Of a DNA stretch of 64,000 bases, positions 6,118 to 45,224 are shown piece after piece; within the stretch, counting starts at the first letter, position 1; the number at the start of each line of letters is the position of its first letter. The stretch covers positions 1 to 64,000 of the forward strand of contig SVTV01000011.1 in assembly GCA_015063605.1 (NCBI GenBank), in the 5' to 3' direction. The notes below the pieces were generated by a model that saw only the letters and a program-made list of their open reading frames with translations, was not told the origin of the DNA and did not search any database. This stretch comes from Oscillospiraceae bacterium. Lineage in GTDB: Bacteria > Bacillota > Clostridia > Oscillospirales > SIG627. Both the position numbers and the translations under genes were made by a program.

Positions 6118-7071
6118 ATGTTAAACAATATATTCGAACAGGTTAAATACGGCTGTCAGCCCATAAAAAAGCGTCTGAAAAAATGCGGAACCGTTAAAAA
6201 AGGCATCGTAGAAGCCACACCCGTGGTATGGAAGGGAAGGCTTCTGCGTTTTGAATGGATGCGCTCCGCCGCATGGGGAATAGGAAACGAAATGAGAAAG
6301 GACGGCTATTATCATTTTGTGGATATGGAAAACGAACAGGAGGCGGGCGTTCCCTTCGCATATGCTCATTCCTTCGGCTGTGCGTATGAGGAAAACGGCA
6401 TCATGTATGTTCACGGTGTCAACGGAAGCAACGGCGGCACGAACATTATCGATGTTTGTATTTCAAGAGACCTTGTGAATTGGGATATAAAGACCGCCAT
6501 AGTCCTTCCCGAAAATTTACAGATATACAACACCTCCGTGTGCCGCGGCGACGGAAGGTATATAATGGCGATCGAAGTTGCGGGCCCCAAGGAAATGATA
6601 GGTGTACCGTTTACTGTCATATTTGCCGAATCGAATGATCTTCTGAGCTGGAAGCTTCTCCCGATGGATGAGCATATTTATCTTAAGGAAAAGTATACGG
6701 CTTGTCCGTCGATACGGTTTTATGACGGATATTATTACATGGTATATCTTGAAGCATTGCCATTTTACAGATACACACCCTATATTGTCAGATCGAAGGA
6801 TCTAAAGGATTTTGAAGCGGCTATCGTGAACCCCTTCATGATGTTTGACGATGAGGACAAGAGGATAGCCCGAGTCAATTCCCTGGATGCTCCCACTGCT
6901 CAGGCGATGATGAGAGCGGTGAACTGCAACGACAGTGACGTGGATTTCTGTGACTTCAACGGCAAGACCGTTATCCTTTACAGTTGGGGAAATCAGCGGG
7001 GAACGGAATTTCTTGCGAGGGCGGAATATGACGGCACGTTGCAGGAGCTCCTCGAATCATATTTTGAATAA
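6118..7071 (+). CDS. Beta-propeller glycoside-hydrolase-like protein (GH43/GH117/GH130-like fold; family not resolved)
   Basis: 317 aa, no signal peptide, repeated W/Y-rich blade-like segments; sits between transporter and dehydratase genes in GH-rich locus. Confidence 0.3.
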   Translation: MLNNIFEQVKYGCQPIKKRLKKCGTVKKGIVEATPVVWKGRLLRFEWMRSAAWGIGNEMRKDGYYHFVDMENEQEAGVPFAYAHSFGCAYEENGIMYVHGVNGSNGGTNIIDVCISRDLVNWDIKTAIVLPENLQIYNTSVCRGDGRYIMAIEVAGPKEMIGVPFTVIFAESNDLLSWKLLPMDEHIYLKEKYTACPSIRFYDGYYYMVYLEALPFYRYTPYIVRSKDLKDFEAAIVNPFMMFDDEDKRIARVNSLDAPTAQAMMRAVNCNDSDVDFCDFNGKTVILYSWGNQRGTEFLARAEYDGTLQELLESYFE

Positions 7072-7085
7072 TAGAGAATAGTAAA

Positions 7086-7883
7086 ATGAAACCAACATTT
7101 TTGAATCAGAACAGTCCCCTTATTACGGGAATGATATTGAAGGATACACCGGATGAAATACGCTTTGCCGTAAAGAATTCAATATATGACGGTGCGGATT
7201 GCCTCGGAATACAGCTTGAATTTCTGAAAAGAGAATACAGGACGGAGGATAATTTCAGAAGGATCTTCGCCGCCTGCTCCGGTCATCCCATATACATCAC
7301 AAATTACAGAGGCAGAGAAAATACGGGGCTTACGGATGAAGAGATATCCGAGGAGCTTCTTACCGCATTGAGGTGCGGTGCTACGCTTGCCGATGTTCCG
7401 GGAAGCTTTTTCGATGATGAAAGCGGAATGGGAATAGGTCTTGAGCTTTCACGGAAAAAAGATGCGGCGGAAAAACAGATAAGGCTTATCGAAAGGATAC
7501 ACGAAATGGGCAAGGAAGCATTGATGTCCTCCCATGTTCTGAAATTCGCATCTGCTGAGACCGTACTCGAGATTGCATTCGAGCAGCAAAGACGGGGTGC
7601 GGATGTGGTGAAGATAGTAACCGCCGCAAATTCAGACGAAGAGCAGATAGAAAATCTCAGAATAACGAATCTTTTGAAAAAGGAATTGAAGGTGCCGTTT
7701 TTGTTCCTGTCGGGAGGTACTCATTCCAAGATACACAGAATGATTGGTCCCCAGCTGGGTTGTGTCACTTATCTTGCGGTAAGAGAGCATGACGAACGTG
7801 CCGTATCCACACAGCCTACTATAAGAGCGGCAAAGGCGGTAAGAGATAATCTCGATTATTTACCCGATATTATATTGGAATAA
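7086..7883 (+). CDS. Type I 3-dehydroquinate dehydratase-like enzyme (AroD family paralog)
   Basis: AroD-like motifs: SSHVL (catalytic His region), VKIVTAANSDEE (Schiff-base Lys region), SGGTHSKIHRMIGPQLGCVTYLA (MG..G..SRi..G.S.T.A pattern). Confidence 0.5.
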   Translation: MKPTFLNQNSPLITGMILKDTPDEIRFAVKNSIYDGADCLGIQLEFLKREYRTEDNFRRIFAACSGHPIYITNYRGRENTGLTDEEISEELLTALRCGATLADVPGSFFDDESGMGIGLELSRKKDAAEKQIRLIERIHEMGKEALMSSHVLKFASAETVLEIAFEQQRRGADVVKIVTAANSDEEQIENLRITNLLKKELKVPFLFLSGGTHSKIHRMIGPQLGCVTYLAVREHDERAVSTQPTIRAAKAVRDNLDYLPDIILE

Positions 7884-8947: not shown

Positions 8948-9960
8948 AAACAAAGCAGATAGTTTTTACAAAGCCGTACACGGCAGAGCTTCTTGACCGT
9001 GAATGCCTTCCCCCGAAAGCGGATGAGGTAACCGTACAGCTTGAATATTCCGCGATCAGCGCAGGCACGGAGAAAGCAAATTATACGGGAATGAGAAACG
9101 GAGTAGATCAATCGGAGGACGCAGAGCCTGTATTTCCGAGAACCACTGGCTACAGTGCCGCAGGAACGGTCATAGATGTTGGAAGCGGTATTACCGATAT
9201 ATCCGTAGGCGACAGAGTAGCCGTTTATTGGGGAAACCATAAAAAGCATATCACGGTGACACGTAATAAGGTCATAAAGCTTCCCGAGAGAGTATCCTCT
9301 ATGGAAGGTTCCATGGCGCTTATCTCCACGTTCCCTCTCGGTGCCATAAGAAAAGCCCACCTTGAGATGGGCGAATCCGCATTGGTGATGGGACTTGGTA
9401 TTCTCGGGATTTTTGCGGTGCAGGAGCTTCGTGCGGCGGGAGCTTATCCCGTAATTGCCGCAGATCCCATAAAGGAGCGCCGTGAGCTTGCTTTGAAAAT
9501 GGGAGCGGACGCTGTATTCGATCCCACTGAGGGAGACTTTGCAGGAAATGTGAAGAGGCTTACGGACGGCGGTGTGGATGTCTGCATCGAGGTCACGGGA
9601 TTGGGCATCGGTCTTATTCAGGCGCTTGACTGCATGAAGGAAATGGGAAGAATATCTCTTCTCGGATGCACGAGAAGCTCAAAATTCGAAATAGACTACT
9701 ACAGCAAGGTGCATGGAAAGGGTATACAGCTTCTGGGAGCACATACGAGGGCGCGTCCGAAATTCGAATCATCTTACGGCTTATGGACGGATGCAGATGA
9801 TATGAAGACAGTTCTCGGACTTATTGAAGGAAAGAGACTCAATTTCAAGGATATGATCGGTGAGATACATTCTCCCGCAGATGCTTCCGCAGTGTATGAC
9901 AGACTTGTAAACGATAAAAAATTCCCCGTTGGAGTTTTGTTCGATTGGAGCAGAATATAA
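8944..9960 (+). CDS. Zinc-binding medium-chain dehydrogenase/reductase (sorbitol/threonine dehydrogenase-like)
   Basis: 338 aa MDR architecture; ATGA start overlap with upstream gene (translational coupling). Confidence 0.6.
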   Translation: MKTKQIVFTKPYTAELLDRECLPPKADEVTVQLEYSAISAGTEKANYTGMRNGVDQSEDAEPVFPRTTGYSAAGTVIDVGSGITDISVGDRVAVYWGNHKKHITVTRNKVIKLPERVSSMEGSMALISTFPLGAIRKAHLEMGESALVMGLGILGIFAVQELRAAGAYPVIAADPIKERRELALKMGADAVFDPTEGDFAGNVKRLTDGGVDVCIEVTGLGIGLIQALDCMKEMGRISLLGCTRSSKFEIDYYSKVHGKGIQLLGAHTRARPKFESSYGLWTDADDMKTVLGLIEGKRLNFKDMIGEIHSPADASAVYDRLVNDKKFPVGVLFDWSRI

Positions 9961-10877
9961 TGAAAAAAGCTTTACTTATAGCAGGAGGCGGAACTCTCGG
10001 TACTTACACAGCAGAGGAGCTTCTGCGTCTCGGACACAGCGTTGATATCATTTGCCTTGAGGATAAGGTATCCGATAATAAAGATCTGAGATACTATAAG
10101 GCGAATGCCACGCTGGAATTCCTTCGTGAGCTTTTCAAGGAGAACCGCTATGACGGTATAGTCAATTTTATCCATTACAAGAATCATCTCGACTATATTC
10201 CCTATCATGAATTGCTGACGGAAAACACGGATCATCTTATCTTTCTGTCCTCATACCGTGTTTATGCGGATCTTGAACATCCCGTCAGGGAAACATCCCC
10301 GCAGCTTATAGACGTTATAAAGGACGATCCCGAGTTTTTCGAAAAGGAGGATTACGCCCTGTCAAAGTCCAAGGCTGAAAGATTCCTGCGTGACAATCCG
10401 TATCCGAAAAAATGGACTATAGTCCGTCCCGTTATCTCCTTCTCGGACAGAAGACTTGATATAAATATGGTCTCCCGTCATGAAGTGATCGAAGCGGTGA
10501 AGGAGGGAAGAAAGGTCAGACTTCCCATCGAAGCAAAGCATCTTACGGCAGGTCTTGATTGGGCGGGAAACTCGGGTAAGATAATAGCCAACCTTCTCTT
10601 CAAGAAGGAATGTATAGGAGAAGCCTATACGGTATCCTCAGCTCAGAATCTCACAACGGCGGAGATCGCGGATATTTATACCGAGGTGCTGGGTGTGGAA
10701 TTCGAATGGGTTCCCGCAGACTTTAAAAGCGACAATTTCAATTGGCGCTACGACAGAATATATGACAGAACCATAGATAATTCAAAGGTGCTCGCGGCTG
10801 CGGGGCTTGAACCCTCGGATTTCAAGAGCATCAAGGAAGGCTTGATAACGGAGCTTAAAAAGCTCGGTGCTATCTGA
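9960..10877 (+). CDS. NAD(P)-binding Rossmann-fold protein (NmrA/atypical SDR epimerase-like)
   Basis: MKKALLIAGGGTLGTYTAEELLRLGHSV glycine-rich dinucleotide-binding motif; TAATG overlap with upstream gene. Confidence 0.55.
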   Translation: MKKALLIAGGGTLGTYTAEELLRLGHSVDIICLEDKVSDNKDLRYYKANATLEFLRELFKENRYDGIVNFIHYKNHLDYIPYHELLTENTDHLIFLSSYRVYADLEHPVRETSPQLIDVIKDDPEFFEKEDYALSKSKAERFLRDNPYPKKWTIVRPVISFSDRRLDINMVSRHEVIEAVKEGRKVRLPIEAKHLTAGLDWAGNSGKIIANLLFKKECIGEAYTVSSAQNLTTAEIADIYTEVLGVEFEWVPADFKSDNFNWRYDRIYDRTIDNSKVLAAAGLEPSDFKSIKEGLITELKKLGAI

Positions 10878-10897
10878 CAGAAAGGAACGATCGCAAA

Positions 10898-11872
10898 ATG
10901 AAAGCAGTACTTATAAACGATGACAAGTCATTAAGATGGGACAATGTTCCCGATCCCGTGACAGGATCCGAGGACGTACTTATAAAGGTGGAATATGCGG
11001 CTCTTAACCGTGCCGATCTTCTTCAGAGACAGGGAGATTATCCTCCCCCTCCCGGTTGCCCCGAATGGATGGGACTTGAGGTCTCGGGCGAGATAGTCGA
11101 AATGGGAGATAAGGCAAAGGAGGAGTCGGGCTACAAGATAGGTGATAAGGTCTGCGCACTTCTCGGAGGCGGCGGTTATGCGGAATACGTTTGTGTAAAG
11201 CATGATATGTGTATGCCCGTGCCGAAAAACTGCACTATGGCTGAGGCGGCGTGCATCCCCGAGGCTTTTGCCACGGCTTATCTTAAGCTTTTTGTTGAGG
11301 GGAAAGCAAAGGCGGGAGATACTCTTCTCGTTCATGCGGGAGCAAGCGGACTTTCCAGCGTCGTCATTCCCATGGCAAAGCAGTTCGGACTCAGAGTAAT
11401 TACCACAGTAAGAAGAGATCCCGAGGCGGTATCACATCTCGGAGCGGACATAGTTATAGACACAAGAAAGGACAGCCTTGCCGAATTGCTTAAGAAAGAG
11501 GAGGAAGAGGGAAGAGCGGTGGATATCGCCATCGACTGCCTCGGCGGTAAAGCCTTAGGTGAATGTCTTCCCTACGTTAAGTACGGATGCCGCTGGATAG
11601 TTATTGCGGCGCTGGCAGGCTCGGAAACCACGATCGACCTTAAGAATATTTATAAAAAGAATATAAGGATAATAGGAAGCACACTCCGTTCCCGTGCTCC
11701 CGAAATGAAGGCGCAGATATTGAAGAGCATAGTTTCCGAAATATATCCCAAGGTGGAAAGCGGACTTATCAAGCCTACGCTTTATAAGGTGTTTCCCATA
11801 ACGGAAGCGGAAAAGGCTCACGATGTGCTTTTGCACAGCGAGAACAACGGCAAGGTCGTTCTGAAGGTGTGA
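10898..11872 (+). CDS. Quinone oxidoreductase / zinc-free MDR family NADPH oxidoreductase
   Basis: 324 aa, Qor/PIG3-like layout ...VHAGASGLSS... nucleotide-binding region. Confidence 0.6.
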   Translation: MKAVLINDDKSLRWDNVPDPVTGSEDVLIKVEYAALNRADLLQRQGDYPPPPGCPEWMGLEVSGEIVEMGDKAKEESGYKIGDKVCALLGGGGYAEYVCVKHDMCMPVPKNCTMAEAACIPEAFATAYLKLFVEGKAKAGDTLLVHAGASGLSSVVIPMAKQFGLRVITTVRRDPEAVSHLGADIVIDTRKDSLAELLKKEEEEGRAVDIAIDCLGGKALGECLPYVKYGCRWIVIAALAGSETTIDLKNIYKKNIRIIGSTLRSRAPEMKAQILKSIVSEIYPKVESGLIKPTLYKVFPITEAEKAHDVLLHSENNGKVVLKV

Positions 11873-14997: not shown

Positions 14998-16296
14998 ATG
15001 TATCGGATCGCCATTGAAAGGCTGTTTAAATGGAAGGAAAGCAAATACCGAAAGCCGATGATCATTGAAGGCGCCCGTCAGGTCGGTAAGACATGGCTGA
15101 TGAAGGAATTCGGCAGACAGGCGTACGAGAAGACCGTATATATCAATTTTGACTCCAATTCAAGGATGGCGGAGCTTTTCTCTTCGGATCTTGATACGGA
15201 GCGTCTGATAATGGGTCTGGAGCTGTATTCGGGACAAAGGATCGATCCGGGTAAGACCTTGCTGATATTCGATGAGGTCCAGGAGGTTCCGAGAGCGCTG
15301 TCTTCCCTTAAATACTTTTATGAAAATGCTCCGCAGTATCATATTGTGTGCGCAGGCTCATTGCTCGGGATAGCCTTGCATCAAGGTACGTCCTTTCCCG
15401 TAGGAAAGGTTGATTTTCTGAAGCTGTATCCGCTCTCCTTCAAGGAATATCTGATGGCAACGGAAAAAGAACGGTTCGCGGAATTGATAGATACGAATGA
15501 TTTCCAAATGATCACAAGCTTCAGGCAAACATATATCGATTCCCTGAAGATGTATTATTTCGTGGGCGGAATGCCCGAAGCGGTACAAAGCTTTGCGGAA
15601 AATAAAGATCTTAATGAGGTACGTGAGATACAAAAGCGGATACTCGCGGCGTATGAGCAGGATTTTTCAAAGCACGCTCCCAATGAGATCGTACCGAGGA
15701 TACGTATGCTGTGGAACAGTATACCGTCCCAGCTTGCCAAAGAAAACAAGAAGTTCATCTACGGTATTGTCCGTGAGGGCGCAAGGGCGAAGGAATACGA
15801 AAGTGCGATAATGTGGCTCAGCGACTGCGGTCTTGTCCACAAGGTCAGCCGTGTCAATGCTCCGGGTATCCCTTTGCGGGCGTATGAGGACTTGAAGGCA
15901 TTTAAGCTGTTTGCGTTGGATATAGGACTTCTCGGATGCATGGCGGGGCTGCGTAGGACGGCATTGCTTGACGGCAACGATCTTTTCGTTGAGTTCAAGG
16001 GTGCTCTTACCGAACAGTATGTATGCCAGCAGCTGAAGACCGTTGAGGGAGTGGATATTTATTACTACACCAATGACAGGGGCTCCTGCGAGGTCGATTT
16101 TGTTGTTGATACGGGCGAGCGGATAGTCCCTGTAGAAGTGAAGGCAGAGGTGAATCTCAAGGCAAAAAGCCTTAAGACATACATGGAGAAATTCTCTCCC
16201 GAAATCTCGGTACGCACATCCATGGCGGATTACAAAGTAAGCGACGGTCTTGTCGACCTTCCGTTGTATGCGGTCTGCCGCATCACCATGATATGA
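14998..16296 (+). CDS. AAA+ ATPase with DUF4143 domain (AAA_14 family ATP-binding protein)
   Basis: Walker A GARQVGKTWL near N-terminus, 432 aa, architecture typical of DUF4143 ATPases. Confidence 0.7.
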   Translation: MYRIAIERLFKWKESKYRKPMIIEGARQVGKTWLMKEFGRQAYEKTVYINFDSNSRMAELFSSDLDTERLIMGLELYSGQRIDPGKTLLIFDEVQEVPRALSSLKYFYENAPQYHIVCAGSLLGIALHQGTSFPVGKVDFLKLYPLSFKEYLMATEKERFAELIDTNDFQMITSFRQTYIDSLKMYYFVGGMPEAVQSFAENKDLNEVREIQKRILAAYEQDFSKHAPNEIVPRIRMLWNSIPSQLAKENKKFIYGIVREGARAKEYESAIMWLSDCGLVHKVSRVNAPGIPLRAYEDLKAFKLFALDIGLLGCMAGLRRTALLDGNDLFVEFKGALTEQYVCQQLKTVEGVDIYYYTNDRGSCEVDFVVDTGERIVPVEVKAEVNLKAKSLKTYMEKFSPEISVRTSMADYKVSDGLVDLPLYAVCRITMI

Positions 16297-16355: not shown

Positions 16356-16384
16356 TTGACAATCACGTGACAGTGTGTTATAAT
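16356..16384 (+). promoter_or_regulatory. Consensus sigma70 promoter TTGACA-17-TATAAT
   Basis: ttgacaatcacgtgacagtgtgttataat; followed by about 110-nt leader with hairpins (aatgtcagc...gctgac). Confidence 0.6.
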
Positions 16385-19210: not shown

Positions 19211-19273
19211 TAAGAATTTATAAATCGATCCGTGATCCCCGCACAATATTGACCAATAAAATAAAGGTTTGTA

Positions 19274-19903
19274 TTGTACGGGGATCTTTTAAATGAAAAA
19301 GGTGTTATCATGAAAAATCAGAATTTCAGAATGTGGATAAATAATCTGTTGAAAGCGTTTCTTTCATTATTTATATGCGGTTTTGTGGGACAGCTTGCAT
19401 ATACCGTTTTCTTGAATACGAAGAACACAATGGCACCAAAGGAAGCGGAACCCGCTACGTCGATAGTAAGCTTTATAATATTTTTGATAGCTGTGTTCGT
19501 CATATATAAAATACAGGTTTTCGGAAGCCTTACGAATAAAGGCATTGATGAAAGAGAAATTCTTGAAAAAGCCTTTAGGGAAAATAATTACGAGATAGAC
19601 TATAATGCATATTTCAAAGATCAGGTGAAAAAGCGTCTTTGGAGTTATTACCTTGCGGCGGCGCTGGTTCAGATACCGCTGATTATAAATTATGCTCTTG
19701 TGAATGCTGTGAATATGACTCTTTACGAAGCGCCGATAGCTTTTTATAAGTTCTTCATGCCTTCACTTTTCGCATATCAGATGTGCGGAGACCTTTGGTT
19801 CTTGGGGGCATTAATATTTGTTTTGCTCTTCAGCGTTGTTTTCACAGCTCTTGTATACATAGAGCAAAAAAAGTGGCTTGTAAAACCGAGTTATCTGGAG
19901 TGA
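19274..19903 (+). CDS. Polytopic membrane protein, unknown function
   Basis: About 4 predicted TM helices; first gene of AT-rich island; probable start at 19311 (MKNQNF). Confidence 0.45.
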   Translation: MYGDLLNEKGVIMKNQNFRMWINNLLKAFLSLFICGFVGQLAYTVFLNTKNTMAPKEAEPATSIVSFIIFLIAVFVIYKIQVFGSLTNKGIDEREILEKAFRENNYEIDYNAYFKDQVKKRLWSYYLAAALVQIPLIINYALVNAVNMTLYEAPIAFYKFFMPSLFAYQMCGDLWFLGALIFVLLFSVVFTALVYIEQKKWLVKPSYLE

Positions 19904-20104
19904 ACCGGAAGAGATTCTTATTGTCCATATTGCAAAAAAAATTACGTGGTGTTCTTATAAAGATAATGAGTGAACAGAAAACTGTGGGTTTACATTATTG
20001 TGTTTTCTGTGGAATTTGAATTTTTAGAAAATTTAAAGAAGCGTATTTAAAATTTGTTGAGGAAAATAAAAAGCTGACAAGGGAATATACAGGGTAAGCA
20101 TCAG

Positions 20105-20701
20105 ATGAAAATAGAAGAAGTATTGATATTGCCGTCAATAGTATTGCTTATCATAGCATTGGCGCTTTATTACAGAGCATCATACACGCGCATATTTATA
20201 AAAAGATTAACTATGCGCAAGAAAATTAAAAAGCTCTGTAAAAAGAAAGGGTATAAATTACATCCTGCCCGTACTTTATGGTGGTTGGGAAGAAACAGCG
20301 GTACACGACCCGATTTTTATATAGCAACTAAGGAATATATAGTATCTGTTAAGCTTTTTGCATCGAAAACACGGCACGGTATTTTGATATTTGAACAAAA
20401 CGGAAGTTTTTACTTAAGAAAGTATATCGGTATCAGAATGTTGGGTAATTCATTTATTACACCGTATAAATCTATGCCGGGGAAATTACATAAGATATTT
20501 TTTAATTACGGTTTTAAGGATGAATGGTATACAAAAACTCCTATTAAGATAATGCTTTTGAATCCTACCCCTATGGAAGTAAGGGTTACGGGGGAAAACG
20601 GAAAAGAAAATGTTGTATCATCTTCACAGCAGTTATTCGGTGCATATATTTACTCACTCACGGGATTTTTATCCCGATTGGAAGCTATTGATGAAATCTG
20701 A
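20105..20701 (+). CDS. N-terminally membrane-anchored protein, possible PD-(D/E)xK / NERD-like nuclease fold (weak)
   Basis: Single N-terminal TM (ILPSIVLLIIALALYY) then soluble domain with ...RPDFYIATKEYIVSVKLF... D/E/K arrangement; very AT-rich coding sequence. Confidence 0.3.
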   Translation: MKIEEVLILPSIVLLIIALALYYRASYTRIFIKRLTMRKKIKKLCKKKGYKLHPARTLWWLGRNSGTRPDFYIATKEYIVSVKLFASKTRHGILIFEQNGSFYLRKYIGIRMLGNSFITPYKSMPGKLHKIFFNYGFKDEWYTKTPIKIMLLNPTPMEVRVTGENGKENVVSSSQQLFGAYIYSLTGFLSRLEAIDEI

Positions 20702-20746
20702 AAGCAACTTTTCGGCATGTAATGACCGAAAGAAAAGTACATTGAT

Positions 20747-22195
20747 ATGGAAAATCTCCACTTTTTAAATTACAATGAGACAGGTGCAAACAGTTCGGAA
20801 ATAATAGAGGATTGCTTTGCCGACGGAATGTTCAATGAAAATTTTTATAAAATTCTTTTATCCTCTGCGGGAAAAAGAGAGATCCTTAAACGTCAAAGTG
20901 TTTTCAGAGAAGCGGAAAACGAAGAATGCCTTTTGAAGCTTAGAAATGTTTATGAAGGAAGCATCGGAGTAAAGACAGCGTTAAAATGGGTTGAGCGGGC
21001 AAAAGGGGATTTGGAAAAGCAATGTATGCATCTGAAATTTTTGGATAGCTTTCTCAAGTCCGCTCGGACGCTTGCCGAGTTTTCCCAAAGCTCATGCGAG
21101 CCACTAAGAGAGATAGGCACTTTCTGGGATAATGAACTTAAAAAATATCCGCAGCTTTCAGATGATGTGAAGCGTATATCGGAAGGAATGAAAGAGTTTT
21201 TGACGGTCAATTTGGTGGAAAATGATGAACTTTGGATAACTCCCGATTACGGCAGTGTGTTTTATGTGGATATATTGAAGGATTGTGCCGATGCTCTCGG
21301 AGTTGAATGTCAATTACCTTTCGGAAAAGGAAGCATCAGAAGCCCATATTCTGATTTCCTTTCTCTCTTCGGCGGAAAAAGCGAGGCTGTCAGAGAGACT
21401 TTGGATAAATACACTTTTCTTTTGAAGGACAGCTCCGCAGAGCTTTTGGTGTCTTACGGAAGTGAGATAGATTTTTACCTGACATTTATTGATTTTAAAG
21501 AAAACAAAGGAAGCGCTCTGCCACTTTGCTATCCCGAAATATCTCACGAAAAGAAATTTTATGCAAAGGATGCTGCAGATATATCCCTTGTAGTTCAGAA
21601 CATACCGAAAATTGTGACTAACGATATATATATCGATGAAAGCGAACCGTTTTTCTTCATAGTAGGTGCCAACGGCGGAGGAAAGACATCCTATATTCGT
21701 GCTGTGGGAATAAATCTTCTTTTGTTTTTGGCGGGTTGTCCCATATTCGCAAGAGAAGCGCAAATATATCCGTTTGATAATGTGTTTACGCATTTTCCGA
21801 GAAACGAAAAGGAAGAAACCAAGGGCAGACTCAACGAGGAAACAGTCCGCATACAAAACTTATATGACGGCATGGGAAGAAATTCCGTCATTCTTCTTAA
21901 CGAGACTTTCTCTTCCGTGAGCGAGGAAAACGGTACGGAGCTTTCGTTGGATGCGGCGGAGAAAATACGTAATTCCGGCTGTTTCGGACTTTTTGTAACC
22001 CACTACAGAGATGTATGCTTCTCGGAATATCCCTATTTATCGGCGGAAATACAGAAAGGGAATGATAATAACGGCAGAACATTCAAAATAGTCAGAGAAA
22101 ATCGTGATCCGGAAGCGTATATCAATGATATATTGAGAAGATATCGTCTTGATGAAGAATCCTTGAATGTGAGAATTGCGGCGGAGGTAGAGTAA
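20747..22195 (+). CDS. MutS-core ATPase paralog 1 (MutS domains III-V only; no mismatch-binding, connector or Smr domains)
   Basis: MutS domain V Walker A FFFIVGANGGGKTSYIRAVGINLLLFLAGCPIFA (cf. MutS ITGPNMGGKSTYMRQ...AQIGSFVPA); MutS Walker B/signature region LLNETFSSVSEENGTELSLDAAEKIRNSGCFGLFVTHY. Confidence 0.7.
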   Translation: MENLHFLNYNETGANSSEIIEDCFADGMFNENFYKILLSSAGKREILKRQSVFREAENEECLLKLRNVYEGSIGVKTALKWVERAKGDLEKQCMHLKFLDSFLKSARTLAEFSQSSCEPLREIGTFWDNELKKYPQLSDDVKRISEGMKEFLTVNLVENDELWITPDYGSVFYVDILKDCADALGVECQLPFGKGSIRSPYSDFLSLFGGKSEAVRETLDKYTFLLKDSSAELLVSYGSEIDFYLTFIDFKENKGSALPLCYPEISHEKKFYAKDAADISLVVQNIPKIVTNDIYIDESEPFFFIVGANGGGKTSYIRAVGINLLLFLAGCPIFAREAQIYPFDNVFTHFPRNEKEETKGRLNEETVRIQNLYDGMGRNSVILLNETFSSVSEENGTELSLDAAEKIRNSGCFGLFVTHYRDVCFSEYPYLSAEIQKGNDNNGRTFKIVRENRDPEAYINDILRRYRLDEESLNVRIAAEVE

Positions 22196-23646
22196 TGGAA
22201 TTGAGCTTGATGAATCTTGCGGGAAACGAAGCGCCGAAATCTTGTATGACATTGTGTGATGCAACGAAAAGCGATATTTTGTTTTACAGATTTTTTGAAG
22301 CGCTGTCATGTGTCAACGGCAGAAAAGTAAGCGAACGTGAAGTGTTTTCCGATGCTTTGCGTAAATTGATGACACATCCTCTTTGTACAAAAGAAGAGAT
22401 AGTATACAGACAGGATGTTATTTGCGACTTTATTTCCGACAGAGCACTTTGGGACGGGTTTTATTCCTGCTTTTACCATTTGAATGAATGCAGAGAAGAG
22501 CTCAATGTAAAACTGAAAGAAAATATGGGAGCTTACAGAAACGCTTCAAATGCTATATTCAATGCATGCGGATATCTCAGAAGTGTAAGCTTTATATTGA
22601 AAAGAATACTTCTTATCATGAAAAGGCTTAAAAACGTTCTGGATAGCGGAAATTACAGGAGTGAAGGCTTGAAGCGTTTGCACGAATACGTTATTCCTTT
22701 TGATGACGGGAATGAAAAGCTCAAAGAACTTATTTCTGTTTGCGGAAGATTTGAAATGTTTACTTCCGAAGAAGAACGTGACCTACGCTTGGAGTTTGAC
22801 GATCAGGGATGCATACAAAAATTCGGACTTATAAACGAAAAATACGTAAAATTTACCGATCCCCGTTTGAAAGAGAAGAAGAGCTTTTTCAGGAAAAACA
22901 GCATCGGTGAAGTGTATCCTTCTGTGCGGGTTTCTCTTAACGAAGAAAAAGGCTGTGATGTAAAAGCAGTATCGGATATTTCCGATATGATGCAGGATAT
23001 ATCAAGAAGCATATTTGAATCCGTGGGAACTGTTTGCGACGAGAGAGATGTTTTTAAAGCAGTGCTGTTTTTGTATGATCTTCTTTCGGGTAAAAATATT
23101 CCCCTTTGCTTCCCGGAAGTCAACGAAGGCGAGTGTATATTGTACGAAAATCTTTACGACCCTTTTTTATCTCTTGACGGCGGTATAGAAGTGAAGCCGA
23201 GAACTTTTGCTTTTTCACGCAAAAAGGGGCTTATAGTTTGCGGAGATAACGGAAGCGGAAAGACATTTTTGCTCCGTTCTCTCGGAATGGCTCAGGTCAT
23301 GGCACAAAGCGGATTGTTTGTTACGGCGGAAAATGCCTGTATTAACCTGACAGAATGTGTGAAGACCATCTTTGCCGGCAAAGAAAACGAGAGAGTTAAA
23401 ACGGCAAATAAAGGCAGATTCGAACAGGAAGTCAAGCTCCTTTCCGATGCCGCAAGTGAGGATTCTCCGAGATCGCTTTTGCTTATAAATGAGATATTCC
23501 AATCTACGGATTATAAATTGGCTTCGAAAGCGATGGTTCCTATTTTGGGATTTTTGGCAAAAAAGGGGAACTGCTGTGCTATGGCTACACACCTTGATGA
23601 ACTGAAAATAAATTCCGCTTTTGATAATATAGAATTAAGGAGTTGA
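22195..23646 (+). CDS. MutS-core ATPase paralog 2 (domains III-V only)
   Basis: LIVCGDNGSGKTFLLRSLGMAQVMAQSGLFVTA Walker A; LLINEIFQSTDYKLASKAMVPILGFLAKKGNCCAMATHLDEL; lever-like region EEIVYRQDVICDFISD; TAATG start overlap with paralog 1. Confidence 0.7.
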   Translation: MELSLMNLAGNEAPKSCMTLCDATKSDILFYRFFEALSCVNGRKVSEREVFSDALRKLMTHPLCTKEEIVYRQDVICDFISDRALWDGFYSCFYHLNECREELNVKLKENMGAYRNASNAIFNACGYLRSVSFILKRILLIMKRLKNVLDSGNYRSEGLKRLHEYVIPFDDGNEKLKELISVCGRFEMFTSEEERDLRLEFDDQGCIQKFGLINEKYVKFTDPRLKEKKSFFRKNSIGEVYPSVRVSLNEEKGCDVKAVSDISDMMQDISRSIFESVGTVCDERDVFKAVLFLYDLLSGKNIPLCFPEVNEGECILYENLYDPFLSLDGGIEVKPRTFAFSRKKGLIVCGDNGSGKTFLLRSLGMAQVMAQSGLFVTAENACINLTECVKTIFAGKENERVKTANKGRFEQEVKLLSDAASEDSPRSLLLINEIFQSTDYKLASKAMVPILGFLAKKGNCCAMATHLDELKINSAFDNIELRS

Positions 23647-23652
23647 ATTATT

Positions 23653-24273
23653 ATGTCGAAAATACCAAATGATTTAAAACGTTTTTCTGTCAAGTGTGTA
23701 TTGAAAAGAGTAATTCCGTGCATTCTCGGAGAAATAGTATTGGGGATAATACTTTTTCTTTGGGGCGACAGAATATTTATGACGGATATTACTGAATTTA
23801 AGATAAGCTGTTATATCGTTGTTATGTGCATTCCTTTCGTGCTGACCGGTGTTCCGTTCAAACTTTTTGACCGAACCTTTTTCGGTAAGGTAAATAAAGT
23901 CAAGGTTGAAAGCGAACTGACTTCAACGGGAGTAAGTGCAGTCGAAATGAGAGGCTCGAAGGTTACCTTTTATGCAATACTTCAAATTACAGATGAGAAT
24001 GGAAATATATTCGACCGTAAGGTGAAGCTTGATAATTTGGATTCTGAGAGAAACAAAGATATTTTCGGAAAAAAATTAAGCGGAAATGGTGTAGACGTCA
24101 GCTTCAAAGCCGGGGACAGAGTGTTTCACTTGTTTGGAACAAACAATTTAGTTGTTTTACCCGAAGCGTCGGATACTACTGTTAAATGTGCGGTTTGCGG
24201 TCGTATCAATCCCGTGGAAAATAACGAATGCAGTAAATGCGGGCATACTTTGGTTAAAGAATTGCCGTTGTGA
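23653..24273 (+). CDS. Two-TM membrane protein with C-terminal CxxC-x12-CxxC zinc ribbon
   Basis: TM helices IPCILGEIVLGIILFLWG and YIVVMCIPFVLTGVPF; C-terminal KCAVCGRINPVENNECSKCGHTL; 7 bp downstream of MutS paralog 2. Confidence 0.55.
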   Translation: MSKIPNDLKRFSVKCVLKRVIPCILGEIVLGIILFLWGDRIFMTDITEFKISCYIVVMCIPFVLTGVPFKLFDRTFFGKVNKVKVESELTSTGVSAVEMRGSKVTFYAILQITDENGNIFDRKVKLDNLDSERNKDIFGKKLSGNGVDVSFKAGDRVFHLFGTNNLVVLPEASDTTVKCAVCGRINPVENNECSKCGHTLVKELPL

Positions 24274-24297
24274 CATATAAATCAATACTATCAATGT

Positions 24298-24420
24298 GAT
24301 TTTGTCGAAGGTTTCGATGAAAAAACGTCGAAGGTTTCGATAAAATTGTGTCAAAAACGTCGAAGGGTTCGACAAAATTGCGTCGAAAGCTTCGATAAAA
24401 TTGTGTCGAAGGTTTCGATA
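24298..24420. repeat. Array of five palindromic sites GTCGAAGGTTTCGA(T/C) (TCGAA-N3-TTCGA) with A-rich spacers, period about 23 bp
   Basis: Copies begin at about 24301, 24324, 24356, 24379, 24402; candidate operator array for a dimeric DNA-binding protein. Confidence 0.8.
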
Positions 24421-24489
24421 TTTCCCGGAATGCTTTGAATCGGTTAAATTTATTTACAACCCCGTTACAAAAAGTTTACAATTTTTCTG

Positions 24490-24518
24490 TTGACAAAAAC
24501 AAGTCCGTATGATACTAT
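24490..24518 (+). promoter_or_regulatory. Sigma70-like promoter TTGACA-17-TACTAT
   Basis: ttgacaaaaacaagtccgtatgatactat upstream of structured leader. Confidence 0.55.
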
Positions 24519-24669: not shown

Positions 24670-25401
24670 ATGAAAGATGACCTTAAACAGTTTTTAAAGA
24701 ATTTTTTGAAAAAGCTTCTTATATTCCTTGCCGTTGCAGGCGGCATAGTGCTTTTCTTTGTGATCTTTTATGCCATATTCCCAAGCGACGGAGGAAAAGG
24801 TGGCTGGGGATTTAAAAAGCCATCGGGGGGAGAAGCAATTTTAGCCAAGCCCGTTATATACCTCTATCCCGAAGAAACCACAGACGTAAAGGTTGAGCTT
24901 GATATAAGCGGAGAGCTTTACTGTACATATCCGAAGTATGAAGACGGTTGGGAAGTAACGGCGTACCCCGACGGTACTCTTGAAGATAAGAAGGACGGGA
25001 ATGAGTATTCATATCTCTTCTGGGATGCATACAGCGATATCGACTTCGATCTTTCCCGTGGATTTGTTGTAAAGGGAGAAGATACGGCGGAGTTTTTACG
25101 TGATACTTTAAGTAAAATGGGACTTTTGCCGAAGGAATACAATGAATTTATAGTATATTGGCTTCCCTTAATGGAGAAAAACGATTATAATTTTATTACG
25201 TTCCAGAAAGAAGCGTATACGGATAATGCAAAGCTTGATATAACGCCCGCACCCGACAGTATTCTTCGTGTTTACATGGTTTATACTGCCGTTGATGAAG
25301 ATGACGTTAAGAAATACGAGGGAATTGAAGCTCCCAAAATAAAAGGCTTTGAGCGTAAAGGCTTTACGGTAGTTGAATGGGGCGGTTCCGAAATTAAGTA
25401 A
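24670..25401 (+). CDS. N-terminally membrane-anchored extracytoplasmic protein, unknown function
   Basis: Single TM LLIFLAVAGGIVLFFVIFYAIF then Gly-rich linker and soluble domain. Confidence 0.5.
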   Translation: MKDDLKQFLKNFLKKLLIFLAVAGGIVLFFVIFYAIFPSDGGKGGWGFKKPSGGEAILAKPVIYLYPEETTDVKVELDISGELYCTYPKYEDGWEVTAYPDGTLEDKKDGNEYSYLFWDAYSDIDFDLSRGFVVKGEDTAEFLRDTLSKMGLLPKEYNEFIVYWLPLMEKNDYNFITFQKEAYTDNAKLDITPAPDSILRVYMVYTAVDEDDVKKYEGIEAPKIKGFERKGFTVVEWGGSEIK

Positions 25402-27873: not shown

Positions 27874-29235
27874 TTATATTGATATCGTTCCGTCCGAAAG
27901 GTCTTTTGCCGCAAAGGATACAAAGTAAAACGGTATTGTAAGAAGCTTCTGCTCGTTATCGTAACCGTAATTGTTTTTGGAGATCTTTATGGCAAATTCA
28001 AATTTGTTGTGATTGGAGAACTTTTCAAGAGAATTTAAAGTGCCTCTGCCCTTTTTGACATCTATCGGATAAAGCTTGTTATCCGATTCTATGATAAATT
28101 CAAGCTCTGCCGAGGATTTTCCGCGCCAATAAAACAACTTCAGGTCTTTGGCTACCAGCTCATTGGCAACAAAATTTTCGAAAAAGATGCCTGACAGAGT
28201 GTTTTCTCTGCTGCTTGATATGAAGGATGATGCATTGATACCGCTCTGATATGAGAACATGCCGATGTCTCCGAGAAAAAGACGGAAATTACTTTCATTA
28301 TCAGCCATAAGAGGCATCGAAACATGCTCTTTGAGCTGAAATGACTGATTCACAATGTGCGCTAATGTGAGCCACTGAACAGAGGTGGCAAAATCTCTTG
28401 TCCTGCTGTTTTCCTCGATCAGCCCGGGAGAAAAATTCTTCGATTCTTTGTTGAGCTCTTTGAAAATATTCTCGAATAAGGTGCGAGAGCGCAATACCGA
28501 TTCTCTGCTCGCTTGATACAGCTCCATATCCGAAAGGTAATTATCATATAAAGACTTCAATATCTCTCTTGCTTCGAAAAGATCGCCATCGCTTATATAA
28601 GCGTCTACCGCTTCGGGCATTCCGCCTACAAGCAAGTATCTGTATACTTGCTCCATTGCCAGCTCATGGATATTTGCATCCGGAGGTGTTTTTGTATCGT
28701 ACGCTTTTTTTACGGCGTCATAAAGAGGCGTGTTGGAGTTCAGTAAGAATTCGTCAAAGGTCAACGGATACACGGTTATCTGATTTATTTTTCCTACGGG
28801 AAAAAGAAACTTACCGGTCTCCTCGGAGCCCTTTTTTCGTGTCTCCCTTTGGAGCTTGATCCTTACCATAGAACCTGTTGCGATGACGGGGATATCTCTG
28901 AGATCCTGACAAAAGTATTTCAGAGATGATATTATATTCGGACACTCCTGGATCTCATCGAAGATCAAAAGAACGCTTTCGTCTATTCTTCTTCCTTTTG
29001 AAAGAGAAATATATTCTACGATCTTCTCGGCATTTGCGGTCTCGGAGCAAAATTCCCGTATATCGTCTTCCTTCTTCAGATCGATATAGATATAGCTGTT
29101 CTTGTAATACCTTTCGGCAAATATTTTTTGAACAAGGTAAGTCTTTCCGACCTGTCTTGCTCCCCACACGATCAGAGGCTTTTTTCTTTTATTATTATTC
29201 CAGGCTATTAATGATTGCAAAGCAATTCGTTCCAT
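27874..29235 (-). CDS. AAA+ ATPase with DUF4143 domain (second, diverged copy)
   Basis: Walker A WGARQVGKTYLVQ; 453 aa; same architecture as 14998-16296 but low sequence identity. Confidence 0.7.
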   Translation of the reverse strand: MERIALQSLIAWNNNKRKKPLIVWGARQVGKTYLVQKIFAERYYKNSYIYIDLKKEDDIREFCSETANAEKIVEYISLSKGRRIDESVLLIFDEIQECPNIISSLKYFCQDLRDIPVIATGSMVRIKLQRETRKKGSEETGKFLFPVGKINQITVYPLTFDEFLLNSNTPLYDAVKKAYDTKTPPDANIHELAMEQVYRYLLVGGMPEAVDAYISDGDLFEAREILKSLYDNYLSDMELYQASRESVLRSRTLFENIFKELNKESKNFSPGLIEENSRTRDFATSVQWLTLAHIVNQSFQLKEHVSMPLMADNESNFRLFLGDIGMFSYQSGINASSFISSSRENTLSGIFFENFVANELVAKDLKLFYWRGKSSAELEFIIESDNKLYPIDVKKGRGTLNSLEKFSNHNKFEFAIKISKNNYGYDNEQKLLTIPFYFVSFAAKDLSDGTISI

Positions 29236-40848: not shown

Positions 40849-40992
40849 CTTTAAGACCATTCCTTTTCTGTAAGGCGGGATGACTTTTTATATCATTACT
40901 CCGTGCCTCATATAATTATACACAAAATAAACGGGAAAGTCAATCGAGGTTTGTTATAACGTAAAAAAAATTGCAAATTTTTTTGAAAAACA

Positions 40993-41024
40993 TGTCACAA
41001 AATGCCTTCCTGAATTGTATATAT
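40993..41024 (+). promoter_or_regulatory. Candidate ECF-sigma-type promoter, copy 1: TGTCACAAA-N11-AATTGTATATAT
   Basis: tgtcacaaaatgccttcctgaattgtatatat, about 120 bp upstream of the sigma factor gene; same motif with identical 20-bp spacing recurs at 42440. Confidence 0.5.
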
Positions 41025-41144
41025 ATACAGAAGCGGAAAACTATTTTCGATAAATGCAATATTCACAGTATCTACATTGATTTTCTAATGTTATTGCGTT
41101 ATAATTTAACCGAGACCTTTAATACTTGTCAAACCGAGGGAACG

Positions 41145-41720
41145 ATGTTACTGTTTTTATTGCTTTTGGAAGAATCGGAAAGAAAGCCCGTGGAGTTTCT
41201 TTACAACAAATACTGCAGATATATGTATCAGACAGCATACAACATTTTGGGTAATAATATTGCTGCGGAGGATGCGGTGCATAACGCTTTTGTCGCCATA
41301 ATTAATAATTTGGACGGAATAAAATACGGACTTGAAAAGGAGCTTGAAGATCCGGATTCCGACTATCTTTTGGGATACGTTTGCCGTGCCGCTAAAAATT
41401 GCGCTTTGAATATTAAAGCGAAAAAAGACAAGATATCCCGCCGTGAAACATCGTATCCGGAGGATGATACTCTCCTCGGCGATATTGAAATGTGCGATAA
41501 AATAATAGCCGATGAAAGCGTTATGCGTATAAAAAATTGCATAAAAAAGCTTCCCGAAATATACAGGGACATTTTCGTTATGCACTTTATCGGAGAAATG
41601 TCCTATAAAGAAATAGGAAAATTGCTTTCACTTCCCCAAGCAACAATAAGAAAACGCATCGAGCGCGGCAAAGTAAAGCTTGCGGAAGAATTGAAAAAGG
41701 AAGGGTTTGATATAAAATGA
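41145..41720 (+). CDS. ECF-subfamily RNA polymerase sigma-70 factor
   Basis: Region 2 (AEDAVHNAFVAIINN) and region 4 HTH (MSYKEIGKLLSLPQATIRKRIERGKVKL); start at ATG 41145 behind GAGGGA SD. Confidence 0.8.
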   Translation: MLLFLLLLEESERKPVEFLYNKYCRYMYQTAYNILGNNIAAEDAVHNAFVAIINNLDGIKYGLEKELEDPDSDYLLGYVCRAAKNCALNIKAKKDKISRRETSYPEDDTLLGDIEMCDKIIADESVMRIKNCIKKLPEIYRDIFVMHFIGEMSYKEIGKLLSLPQATIRKRIERGKVKLAEELKKEGFDIK

Positions 41721-42403
41721 ACAAAGCTGATGAAAAAATAGCCTTAGCTTTGGCGCAGGTGGATGCGGAAGAGTTTAAAAATATGGATATGACCGCCGCC
41801 GATAATTGGGTACCGTCGGAAAAGTTTGAAAAGAAGATAGGAAAGCTTCTGAAACATCGGAAAGAACCGTTTATTAAAATTGCGGGTAACGCAAGAAAAC
41901 GCTTTGCGGCTGTAGCATGTGCGTTTCTTGTTTTTTTCGGTGCCGCCATGAGCGTGGAGGCGTCGAGGGAGTTTATAGTGGGATTTGTTGTTGATATATA
42001 TGAAAATATATCTAAGTTTGCATTCGAAAATCCGGAAGGAGCAAATGCTCCCAAAGAAATAGAAATAAGATACTATCCGGAATATATTCCGGACGAATAT
42101 GAATTGAGAGAAACGAAAGAGTCAAGATTTCGCAATGAAATTGTATTTTATAACAAGAAAGATCAAGCTTTGATATATACACAATATTTGATTGATTCAA
42201 TTTCGATCTCGCTTGATACAGAGGATGTTAACATAAATGAAATAAAAATCGGTGATTATTCCGGGTATTACTATATAAGTAAAGAATTAATAAATATTAT
42301 ATGGAAAACTGATGAGTATGTTTTCTATATCAGCGGCGATGAAAATATAACTTTAGATGCGCTTATTGAGATGGCTGAAAGCTTAAAGGCGGAAGAAAAA
42401 TAA
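41717..42403 (+). CDS. Membrane-anchored anti-sigma-factor-like protein (DUF4367-type)
   Basis: ATGA overlap with sigma gene; single TM (FAAVACAFLVFFGAAMSV) followed by extracytoplasmic domain; classic Clostridial ECF partner layout. Confidence 0.55.
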   Translation: MNKADEKIALALAQVDAEEFKNMDMTAADNWVPSEKFEKKIGKLLKHRKEPFIKIAGNARKRFAAVACAFLVFFGAAMSVEASREFIVGFVVDIYENISKFAFENPEGANAPKEIEIRYYPEYIPDEYELRETKESRFRNEIVFYNKKDQALIYTQYLIDSISISLDTEDVNINEIKIGDYSGYYYISKELINIIWKTDEYVFYISGDENITLDALIEMAESLKAEEK

Positions 42404-42439
42404 TTTTTTTCAAAAAAATTGAAATTTTTTCTAAAAATA

Positions 42440-42471
42440 TGTCACAAACTGTTTTTCGTAATTGTATATAT
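42440..42471 (+). promoter_or_regulatory. Candidate ECF-sigma-type promoter, copy 2
   Basis: tgtcacaaactgtttttcgtaattgtatatat, about 90 bp upstream of secreted-protein gene 42562. Confidence 0.5.
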
Positions 42472-42561
42472 GGTTAGAGGGACAAAAAATGCTTTTGAAT
42501 TGTTTTTTCAATGAACAAGTATATATGTTTCCTCTAATACATAGCAAAGGAGGAAAACGTT

Positions 42562-43008
42562 ATGCGCACAAGAAAAAGAATTCTGTTTCTGGCTATGGCA
42601 GTTTTTATGATTGCAAACTGCTTTTTGCCGTTTACGGTAAATGCGGCACTTCCGGAAGATAATCTTGTATCGCCTTTGGCAAACAATGTTCGTAATGTCT
42701 CATCATCATTTGATATAATGAACGGAGTTGCTGAAATCGAAGCATCTTACATAGGTTATCAAGGAACAACAACGGGAGCTACTATTACGGTCAAGTTACA
42801 GAAAAAGTTTTTGTTCTGGTGGAATGACGTTGACAACGGTCAACCCGATGACACTTGGACAGCAAACTTAACGGGATGGAAAAATTCTGTCTCATACTCT
42901 CTCGCGTTGAGCAATACGGGAGATTACCGCGCAGTGTTTACGTACACTATCCGCGGTACGGGTGGAGCGGACGATGAAATATCGGATACTCTTGAGTATA
43001 CTTATTAA
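42562..43008 (+). CDS. Small secreted protein, unknown function
   Basis: Signal peptide MRTRKRILFLAMAVFMIANCFLPFTVNA. Confidence 0.5.
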   Translation: MRTRKRILFLAMAVFMIANCFLPFTVNAALPEDNLVSPLANNVRNVSSSFDIMNGVAEIEASYIGYQGTTTGATITVKLQKKFLFWWNDVDNGQPDDTWTANLTGWKNSVSYSLALSNTGDYRAVFTYTIRGTGGADDEISDTLEYTY

Positions 43009-43110
43009 AAGTCCGAAAAATGAATTTTTTGGATGAAGGCTTGAGCATTGCGCTCAAAAACAGCAGTTTTTGCATTTGCAAAAAAAACAAAAAGAAAGGA
43101 CAAACAAAAC

Positions 43111-43575
43111 ATGAAAAAATCAGTAAGATTTATTGCAATCGCACTTGCGTTTTGCACGGTTTTCAGTATAGTGGCATTTGCTATACAGGTAGATGGGGTA
43201 CACAGTTATGGTGTATTTGTGAACAATGGTACTTCGGTAGATTGCCACGGATATTTGTATTCTAACATTATCCATTTCCCCGAAGACGATGAAATGGTTG
43301 AAGTTTGGGCTTCTACAGAGGTTTCCCAAAGAACGGCTAATATGGGGACAATATCGGTGAGCTGCACTTTCCACACGGTTGGTGGTGCTGTTATTGATAC
43401 ACATAATGCCTCAACAACCCAAAACCGTATAGCGAGTACTCTTAATGATCCTGTAGTAGGTCCGCTTCTTGCATTGGCGGAAGCTGTACACAAAGTGGAA
43501 TATATTAATGACGCTGATGTTTCTTTGATTTGGAGCGGGGAAACTTCAAAGCAACTTAGAGATTACTTAGTATAA
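43111..43575 (+). CDS. Small secreted protein, unknown function
   Basis: Signal peptide MKKSVRFIAIALAFCTVFSIVAFA; start moved to ATG 43111. Confidence 0.5.
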   Translation: MKKSVRFIAIALAFCTVFSIVAFAIQVDGVHSYGVFVNNGTSVDCHGYLYSNIIHFPEDDEMVEVWASTEVSQRTANMGTISVSCTFHTVGGAVIDTHNASTTQNRIASTLNDPVVGPLLALAEAVHKVEYINDADVSLIWSGETSKQLRDYLV

Positions 43576-43684
43576 TGTATTGACCTTATTAAGTAACTAA
43601 AGGTATAATACACTTTGGACTTGCCGACAAGTTAGTCGGCAAGTCCTTGGTTGTAACAATTATAGAAAGGGGAGTGAATTACCC

Positions 43685-44962: not shown

Positions 44963-45224
44963 AAGTAAGGCTTGCCGATTTGCGGCAAGCCTTTGAAAAA
45001 ATCGGCTTTGGATTATCAAGAAAAGTGAAACAAAAGTAGTTTTCGATTTGTTATATACATATAAGTGAATTGAATTATAAAATAATCAAAAAACGGCAAG
45101 GTTTACAAATTGTTCATTGACTGTATTTGCGATATATAGTATAATGATACTATGGTATAATAACACATCCGGTATTTGTGCGTCGGTAAAACCATTCAAT
45201 ACTATCGGAGCGAAAGGAGTTACT

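Follow-up and report, generated by a model that had tools for sequence, protein, structure and literature searches.

Pairs of adjacent genes encoding truncated MutS-like proteins have been described previously under the names MutS4A and MutS4B (Lin, Nei and Ma 2007, PMC2190696). These proteins consist of the MutSac region only, and the stop codon of the A gene overlaps the start codon of the B gene. The A and B proteins form separate clades with a patchy distribution, found in Thermoanaerobacter tengcongensis, a Chloroflexus-type group and Thermoplasma/Ferroplasma, and they were reported without a functional study. Weinberg et al. (2010, PMC2864571) also noted 'mutS' genes that follow the crcB motif. 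Our literature search found no functional study of paired or fluoride-linked MutS-related proteins. Here we analyse a pair of this kind in a 64,000-nucleotide stretch of DNA from an Oscillospiraceae bacterium (assembly GCA_015063605.1, contig SVTV01000011.1, positions 1 to 64,000, hereafter the window). Subunit A (20747-22195, + strand, 482 amino acids (aa)) and subunit B (22195-23646, + strand, 483 aa) are MutS-related ATPases and full-length paralogs of each other, and upstream of them lies the gene of a small membrane protein, g2 (20105-20701, + strand, 198 aa). A first-pass annotation of the same DNA had proposed an undescribed five-gene system. Our best reading is that the pair belongs to the MutS4A/B type, i.e. 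a distinct branch of the MutS family, of which it is a divergent, g2-associated variant. The system can therefore not be called undescribed, since overlapping pairs that carry only MutS domain V are present in the first of the two reports and 'mutS' genes behind the crcB motif in the second. It is important to note that the likeness to MutS4A/B is drawn from the published layout and domain description and not from clustering with those sequences: in both cases there is an ATPase region without domains I/II or Smr, and the A stop overlaps the B start. What differs is that the Clostridial B is C-terminally truncated and that one subclade has the partner g2, which is absent from the 2007 paper.

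MutS domain V is recognised by Pfam in both subunits (A, 55.0 bits, E = 1.4e-14; B, 41.4 bits, E = 2e-10; gathering threshold 30.2), and neither of them has a Pfam match to MutS_I, MutS_II or Smr, which agrees with the domain content that had been read from the sequence. The AlphaFold model of A has a mean predicted local distance difference test (pLDDT) score of 85.5. In Foldseek searches its top matches are MSH2, MSH3 and MutS (E ~1e-18, TMq 0.5-0.6, more than 500 aligned columns), and the structure of the E. coli MutS variant D693N (3k0s) is also among the matches. A is composed of a helical core/lever, a small clamp-like insertion, an ABC-type ATPase domain and a tail of ~60 residues past the H-loop. 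Compared to A, the N-terminal region of B is longer and the protein stops 14 residues past the H-loop, without the C-terminal helices of A. The B profile aligns to residues 333-793 of MSH2, and the start of A and B corresponds to domain III; among its matches, the best match of the B profile among solved structures is the MutS2 core 7vuf (4.9e-23), and it also matches the ribosome-bound MutS2 of 7qv3/8qpp (9e-21). Thus, structure and profile alignments to MSH2 and MutS confirm a lever/clamp region, of which the first reading had proposed the lever-like part. Both proteins start at the position that corresponds to domain III. Although A and B are only 23% identical, their profiles align end to end by hhalign (probability 100%, 445 columns). 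Both are complete core/lever/clamp plus ATPase units of the MutS family.

The motifs of the ATPase domain set the pair apart. Walker A reads GANGGGKT in A and GDNGSGKT in B, and Walker B reads LLNE and LINE, respectively. The Asn-Glu of Walker B is invariant in the family (N385/E386 in A, 22 homologs; N432/E433 in B). In place of the STF signature, A, B and all paired relatives have G-[RK]-[LF]-x-x-E, and the His of the H-loop is kept in both Clostridial subunits. MutS2 (RqcU) resembles the pair in having domains III/IV/V without domains I/II and in being the best solved match of the B profile. However, MutS2 homodimers carry KOW/Smr nuclease domains at the C-terminus, and their motifs are D-E in Walker B and STF. 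The pair has none of these features; past the H-loop there are ~60 residues in A and 14 in B as compared to ~330 in the MutS2 proteins P0054/56/57. KamC, the lysine 5,6-aminomutase reactivase (NF052383), is likewise a MutS-domain-V ATPase of ~500 aa without mismatch domains, and it demonstrates that such proteins can have clients other than DNA. Scores of A and B against the NCBIfam models are all far below the cutoffs: 29-52 for the MutS models (cutoffs 480-642), 40-61 for the MutS2 model TIGR01069 (cutoff 400), and 50.0 and 54.9 bits for KamC (cutoff 300). No aminomutase genes were noted among the scanned window proteins or in the census of neighbours in related loci. The earlier statement that A and B are not canonical MutS1 or MutS2 proteins is hence correct: domains I/II and Smr are missing, and N-E and G[RK][LF]xxE motifs stand where D-E and STF would be.

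A genome scan confirmed at least 228 relatives among 600 pattern-matching stretches, and the best 79 loci were analysed. Nearly all of these come from uncultured gut and rumen Clostridia. The A-type family as a whole comprises 1,827 representatives at 50% identity (E <= 1e-30). B is matched by BLAST to open reading frames (ORFs) in 76 of the 79 loci, and A followed by B on one strand is the order in nearly all locus maps. The A/B junction is mostly overlapping, with a modal gap of -4 (19 of 58 pairs); in the window it is the one-base TAATG overlap at 22193-22197 that had been noted from the beginning. There is also a natural fusion in A-B order, the metagenomic protein P0197 of 1,106 aa with two MutS_V domains, which supports a physical complex of A and B. 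Taken together, the conserved overlapping pair and the fusion indicate that A and B very probably act as a heterodimer, as had been suggested.

About 25 of the 79 loci contain a homolog of g2, in most cases as the gene just before A and with a -4 gap. In three loci (L066, L067 and L047) a g2-like gene is still found nearby, though spo0A sits between it and A. The two remaining genes of the proposed five-gene system, g1 and g5, are without counterpart throughout the 79 related loci, as are the downstream genes and a palindrome array that follows g5. They recur only in contigs of the same species: g1 in L083/L084, and g5 and the palindrome array in L083-L086. Therefore, what recurs is A-B (about 76/79 loci) and g2 (~25), and the survey of neighbours, once run, leaves the pair conserved, g2 partly conserved and g1 and g5 not conserved. 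The conserved functional unit is g2-A-B and not five genes, and g1, g5 and the array are accessories limited to the window's own strain. Co-operonic neighbours elsewhere include CpsB, radical SAM proteins, sigma factors, SLH proteins and GDSL lipases, each in a few loci, and a Pfam census of co-operonic neighbours in the related loci revealed no functional theme.

The only conserved partner of the pair, g2, is a strongly basic protein with an isoelectric point (pI) of 10 and a net charge of +20. It has a single N-terminal transmembrane (TM) helix, immediately followed by a KR-rich stretch, and this arrangement suggests that its basic soluble domain would face the cytoplasm. Conserved residues of g2 are R29, R34, W59, D70, K83 and P154. 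Set against the catalytic triad of the putative PD-(D/E)xK / NERD nuclease, D70 and K83 are nearly invariant, the position two before K83 is Ala or Ser (Ala in the window), and E74 is not conserved. D70 and K83 are placed on consecutive strands in an AlphaFold prediction that was made from a two-sequence input and is unusable as a model (pLDDT 47). There is no match to g2 in Pfam, PHROG or PADLOC, and its family profile found nothing below E = 0.9 among PDB sequences.

Regarding the relatives outside Clostridia, tblastn searches of plasmids revealed overlapping pairs on plasmids of Klebsiella, Enterobacter, Citrobacter and E. coli, while the pairs on plasmids of Alicyclobacillus and Mycobacterium are of full length. 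On the clinical IncF plasmids of Klebsiella and Enterobacter (L080/L082) the operon consists of a cation:proton antiporter, USP, A and B, it adjoins crcB, eno, gpmA and a P-type ATPase gene, and it is headed by a fluoride riboswitch (RF01734, 57-59 bits against a gathering threshold of 34). A fluoride riboswitch is also located ~115 nt upstream of the pair on the Alicyclobacillus plasmid (L081) and upstream of the pair in the actinomycete loci L073 and L074. These fluoride-linked pairs share with the Clostridial ones the overlapping A-B arrangement of ~500-aa proteins, the N-E Walker B and the G[RK][LF]xxE in place of STF, but their A subunit has Phe instead of the H-loop His that Clostridial subunits keep. 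In a rough neighbour-joining tree all paired proteins group apart from MutS2; Clostridial A is sister to the fluoride-type A, and Clostridial B makes up a separate divergent clade. No fluoride riboswitch was found in L001-L070 with a custom covariance model, and none in the window or the island with Rfam, a permissive scan included. Homologs of crcB, the antiporter, enolase, USP and DUF190 are likewise absent near the Clostridial pairs and from the 64-kb window. Since neither the riboswitch nor fluoride-response genes accompany the Clostridial clade, a function in the fluoride response is not simply transferable to it. A HAD-type P-type ATPase gene stands directly upstream of the pair in two Clostridial loci (L049, 4611-7145; L068, 4663-7137). 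A P-type ATPase gene also adjoins the fluoride-type pair in L080/L082 at about 9400-11737, and this could be a recurring link to ion transport. Two further observations on RNA elements were made in the related loci. L081 has three fluoride riboswitches, located before the pair, an MFS transporter gene and a sigma-70 family gene. In L079, from a Eubacterium metagenome-assembled genome, a GA-cis RNA (RF02987, 57.6 bits, 2329-2417) lies ~4 kb upstream of the pair and is probably unrelated to it.

The position of the pair on the chromosome is conserved in relatives. The MerR/DUF1836-NfeD-SPFH operon of the window is common to L046 and L057, and its SPFH gene also to L047 and L060; SPFH identity with these four loci is 67-73% overall, and in all four the pair is located a few kb downstream of SPFH. 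The spo0A gene is near the pair in seven Ruminococcus-like loci (L046, L047, L057, L060, L065, L066 and L067), and in L046, L060 and L066 it lies 120-275 bp upstream of the pair on the opposite strand. In L046 spo0A occupies 6762-7559 (Spo0A_C, E = 5e-47); the window holds g1 and g2 where L046 has other genes and then spo0A. Sigma-A-like promoters are found upstream of the pair in L011, L013, L028 and L063. There is no conserved upstream leader or promoter motif across the g2-type loci, only ordinary sigma-A-like promoters in some of them.

The invariant Asn of Walker B offers a link to published biochemistry. In E. coli MutS the D693N substitution leaves the Mg2+ site empty and makes ATP binding ~15-fold weaker; hydrolysis becomes strongly dependent on Mg2+, and DNA no longer stimulates (Lebbink et al. 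2010, PMC2857095). The same change from Asp to Asn is natural and invariant in the paired family and is present in both subunits, which by analogy predicts a Mg2+-sensitive switch. It should be kept in mind that D693N was engineered as a single substitution into a mismatch-binding homodimer and can serve as an analogy only. On balance we think it probable that g2-A-B is a module of the MutS4A/B type in which A and B form an asymmetric, Mg2+-sensitive heterodimer tethered by g2, and that its role lies in maintenance or stress and not in phage defence. According to this proposal, A and B would be anciently diverged paralogs that have kept the core/lever/clamp and ATPase domains only. Being co-translated from overlapping genes, they would come together as an asymmetric heterodimer whose two ATP sites are composite. 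With Asn instead of Asp in the Walker B of both sites, the complex would be expected to be no motor but a slow clamp or switch, gated by nucleotide and sensitive to Mg2+. In the g2-type clade the basic single-pass g2 may be a partner of the acidic A-B complex or hold it to the membrane on the cytoplasmic side. The chromosomal location, the conserved position and, in some loci, the ordinary sigma-A-type promoters argue for a maintenance or stress role and not for phage defence.

Several points weigh against this interpretation. A and B are acidic (family mean pI about 5.6-5.8) and have no strongly basic clamp, which weakens a simple picture of a DNA clamp, though the charge test is itself uninformative on DNA binding. 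As g2 is missing from ~2/3 of the loci, tethering to the membrane cannot be general. The heterodimer is deduced from gene arrangement and fusion, and its geometry is a prediction. Coordination of Mg2+ in a protein that naturally has Asn may differ from that in the engineered D693N. Moreover, proteins of the window pair are only 29% (A) and 34% (B) identical to those of L046 as compared to 71% for SPFH, and the window pair is of the g2 type and AT-rich while the syntenic relatives are without g2 upstream of A. It is possible that the pair has been replaced in situ by horizontal transfer or that it evolves fast in the manner of conflict genes. The divergence of the pair, its g2 type and the dip in GC content together suggest that the pair has either diverged rapidly or been replaced in situ by a module of the g2 type, and we prefer neither over the other.

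There are other ways to explain the pair, and fluoride-linked relatives bring in the foremost of them, namely a module for ion or fluoride-type stress in which the pair would guard or repair a process sensitive to fluoride or Mg2+, with g2 as its link to the membrane and with regulation by some means other than a riboswitch. The sole functional clue for the superfamily is indeed regulatory, that is, the fluoride riboswitches upstream of pairs in L081, L073 and L074. To this can be added the plasmid operon of antiporter, USP and pair behind a fluoride riboswitch, beside crcB, eno and gpmA, as well as the N-E Walker B, which affects Mg2+ coordination (PMC2857095) and is common to both groups. 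The P-type ATPase genes that precede the pair in L049 and L068 and adjoin it on plasmids, and the membrane proteins and SPFH/NfeD operon around the window pair, are also consistent with such a role. We nevertheless regard it as a tentative alternative, because the riboswitch is absent from the window and L001-L070, crcB, antiporter, enolase, USP and DUF190 are absent near Clostridial pairs and in the 64-kb window, and Clostridial B belongs to a clade of its own. A surveillance of nucleic acids similar to that by MutS2, in which branched DNA or collided ribosomes would be clamped by the heterodimer and a separate effector, possibly g2 as a nuclease, would be recruited, appears to us somewhat more doubtful. 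Domains III-V of the pair equal the MutS2 core minus Smr, the MutS2 core is the best solved match of B (7vuf, 4.9e-23; 7qv3/8qpp, 9e-21), and g2 is very basic, with its conserved D70 and K83 on consecutive predicted strands; in its soluble domain the first-pass annotation had seen a weak D/E/K likeness to PD-(D/E)xK / NERD nucleases. However, Smr and KOW domains are missing and the D-E and STF motifs of MutS2 are replaced. As for g2, it matches no nuclease family, the middle acidic residue is not conserved (Ala in the window), and most loci do not have the protein; nor are the clamp regions basic.

Still less probable is the proposal of the first-pass annotation itself, a horizontally acquired five-gene system for defence against phages or for DNA surveillance. 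The GC dip on which it was built is real, the pair evolves far faster than its neighbours, related pairs occur on plasmids, and A and B have sub-threshold P-loop similarity to the PADLOC models PtuA, AriA and mad8. On the other hand, PADLOC matches of A and B are limited to P-loop stretches (E >= 0.0012, thus all E >= 0.001) and there are none for g1, g2 or g5. Among co-operonic neighbours there is no enrichment of defence genes: each model was matched in at most 3 of 56 upstream and at most 1 of 51 downstream neighbours, and these matches apparently reflect generic domains. The absence of g1 and g5 from the 79 loci, the composition of the pair in other genomes, where it is not richer in AT than its flanks (mean +0.028), and the conserved site by spo0A and the SPFH operon all speak against this proposal. 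An anti-phage role thus finds no significant PADLOC match, no defence-rich neighbourhood and no viral copy, and it meets a conserved chromosomal position. An origin from phages was rejected as well: no relatives of the pair were found among 2.9 million viral contigs of IMG/VR, PHROG gives no matches for g1, g2 or g5, and tblastn of phage records yields weak and partial matches only. The last explanation, a split, decaying or fragmentary mutS2 or mutS without a function of its own, is very improbable. It could draw on the weak, sub-threshold NCBIfam matches to MutS2 and MutS. We rejected it because A and B are complete core plus ATPase units, hundreds of species keep their catalytic motifs, family-specific invariants included, and an identity of only 23% between A and B means that they are not fragments of a recently split gene. 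They are not pseudogenes either.

Considering the whole island, all five ORFs of the first description are located on the same strand. The genes from g2 to g5 are tightly packed as stated (gaps of 45, -1 and 6 nt), but g1 is separated from g2 by 201 nt. The first gene, g1, starts with TTG at 19274 in the ORF list; the ATG at 19310, preceded by the ribosome-binding site AAAGGTG, is a better start and gives a protein of 197 aa (19310-19903, + strand). Pfam, PADLOC, NCBIfam and PHROG scans found no family match for g1. The last gene, g5 (23653-24273, + strand, 206 aa), starts 7 nt past the final base of B, in agreement with the earlier reading. Its C-terminal zinc ribbon is CxxC-x10-CxxC, not x12 as first given, and matches Zn_Ribbon_1 weakly (0.0021, below Pfam gathering). 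Hydropathy confirms the TM helices that had been counted, four in g1, one N-terminal in g2 and two in g5.

The AT-richness of the island, originally judged by eye, is confirmed by calculation: GC content is 0.383 as compared to 0.48 in the upstream and 0.46 in the downstream genes, and GC at third codon positions is 0.33-0.41 as compared to about 0.49-0.52 in the flanking genes. By both measures the island is compositionally distinct from its flanks. The dip reaches into the gene at 24670-25401 (0.41). Among size-matched windows 13% have a GC content equal to or below that of the island, apparently all of them from a second island at 41-49 kb, which is the only place within the 64 kb to equal this low GC. 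The second island (40971-49341) is the stronger of the two, with a GC content of 0.34-0.37, and its genes encode an ECF-type sigma factor, a DUF4367 protein and four proteins of 425-456 aa, including three DUF5050 paralogs. On the upstream side of the first island a hairpin followed by UUUU lies 3' of the SPFH gene (19234-19290, + strand). Its minimum free energy is -27 kcal/mol (z = -6.2), and none of 200 shuffled sequences folds as well. It is a probable terminator that parts the SPFH operon from the island, and the island is therefore probably a transcription unit of its own. The MerR/DUF1836-NfeD-SPFH operon is itself preceded by a perfect extended sigma-70 promoter (TTGACA-17-TATAAT with TG) at 16356-16384. 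Two inverted AAA_14/DUF4143 ATPase genes, at 14998-16296 (+ strand) and 27874-29235 (- strand), flank the region from MerR and SPFH over the island to a beta-helix gene. We considered them as the ends of a mobile element and rejected this, as they are only 29% identical and thus old paralogs, not recent repeats.

The five palindromes that had been taken as the end of the island are real. They are GTCGAAnnnTTCGA sites of 14-15 bp at 24304-24419 (unstranded), of the form GTCGAAnnnTTCGA[T/C], with a spacing of 23/32/23/23 nt. The GTCGAAnnnTTCGA pattern has 10 strand matches in the 64 kb, where 2.1 are expected, and none of 100 shuffles reaches 10; it occurs nowhere else in the window. The array starts 30 bp past the g5 stop, and ~70 bp separate it from the sigma-70-type promoter of the gene 24670-25401 further downstream (TTGACA-17-TACTAT, extended by TG, 24490-24518, + strand). 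This gene encodes a single-TM protein of 243 aa of no known family, and its leader of ~150 nt contains a hairpin and matches no Rfam family. The simplest reading, given the closeness of the array to this promoter, is that it belongs to the regulatory region of the next gene; the palindromes are probably operator or activator sites of the downstream promoter and not the boundary of the island. Their half-sites (TGTCGAA, CGTCGAA) resemble the 0A box of Spo0A, which has the consensus TGTCGAA. A link of the palindromes to Spo0A is thus predicted from sequence and is a lead, relatives of the host encoding Spo0A; no spo0A gene is present in the 64-kb window.

Based on the results obtained, an anonymous annotation as 'MutS domain V protein' can be turned into a testable hypothesis, and the lead of a five-gene defence island is removed. 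The pair and its relatives are now defined by diagnostic signatures, the Asn-Glu of Walker B and G-[RK]-[LF]-x-x-E in place of STF, which set them apart from MutS1 and MutS2. They include a large Clostridial clade (1,827 clusters) that does not share the fluoride wiring; one of its subclades has a membrane-anchored partner instead. The invariant Asn is tied to published biochemistry and predicts Mg2+-sensitive switching. A more specific suggestion, which we put forward with clear reservation, is that g2-A-B of gut Clostridia could be a membrane-tethered MutS-type clamp whose Mg2+-impaired ATP sites sense stress linked to ions, nucleotides or the cell envelope. If this is true, the MutS fold would have a function unrelated to DNA repair or ribosome rescue, and this could account for the link between the sister clade and fluoride riboswitches.

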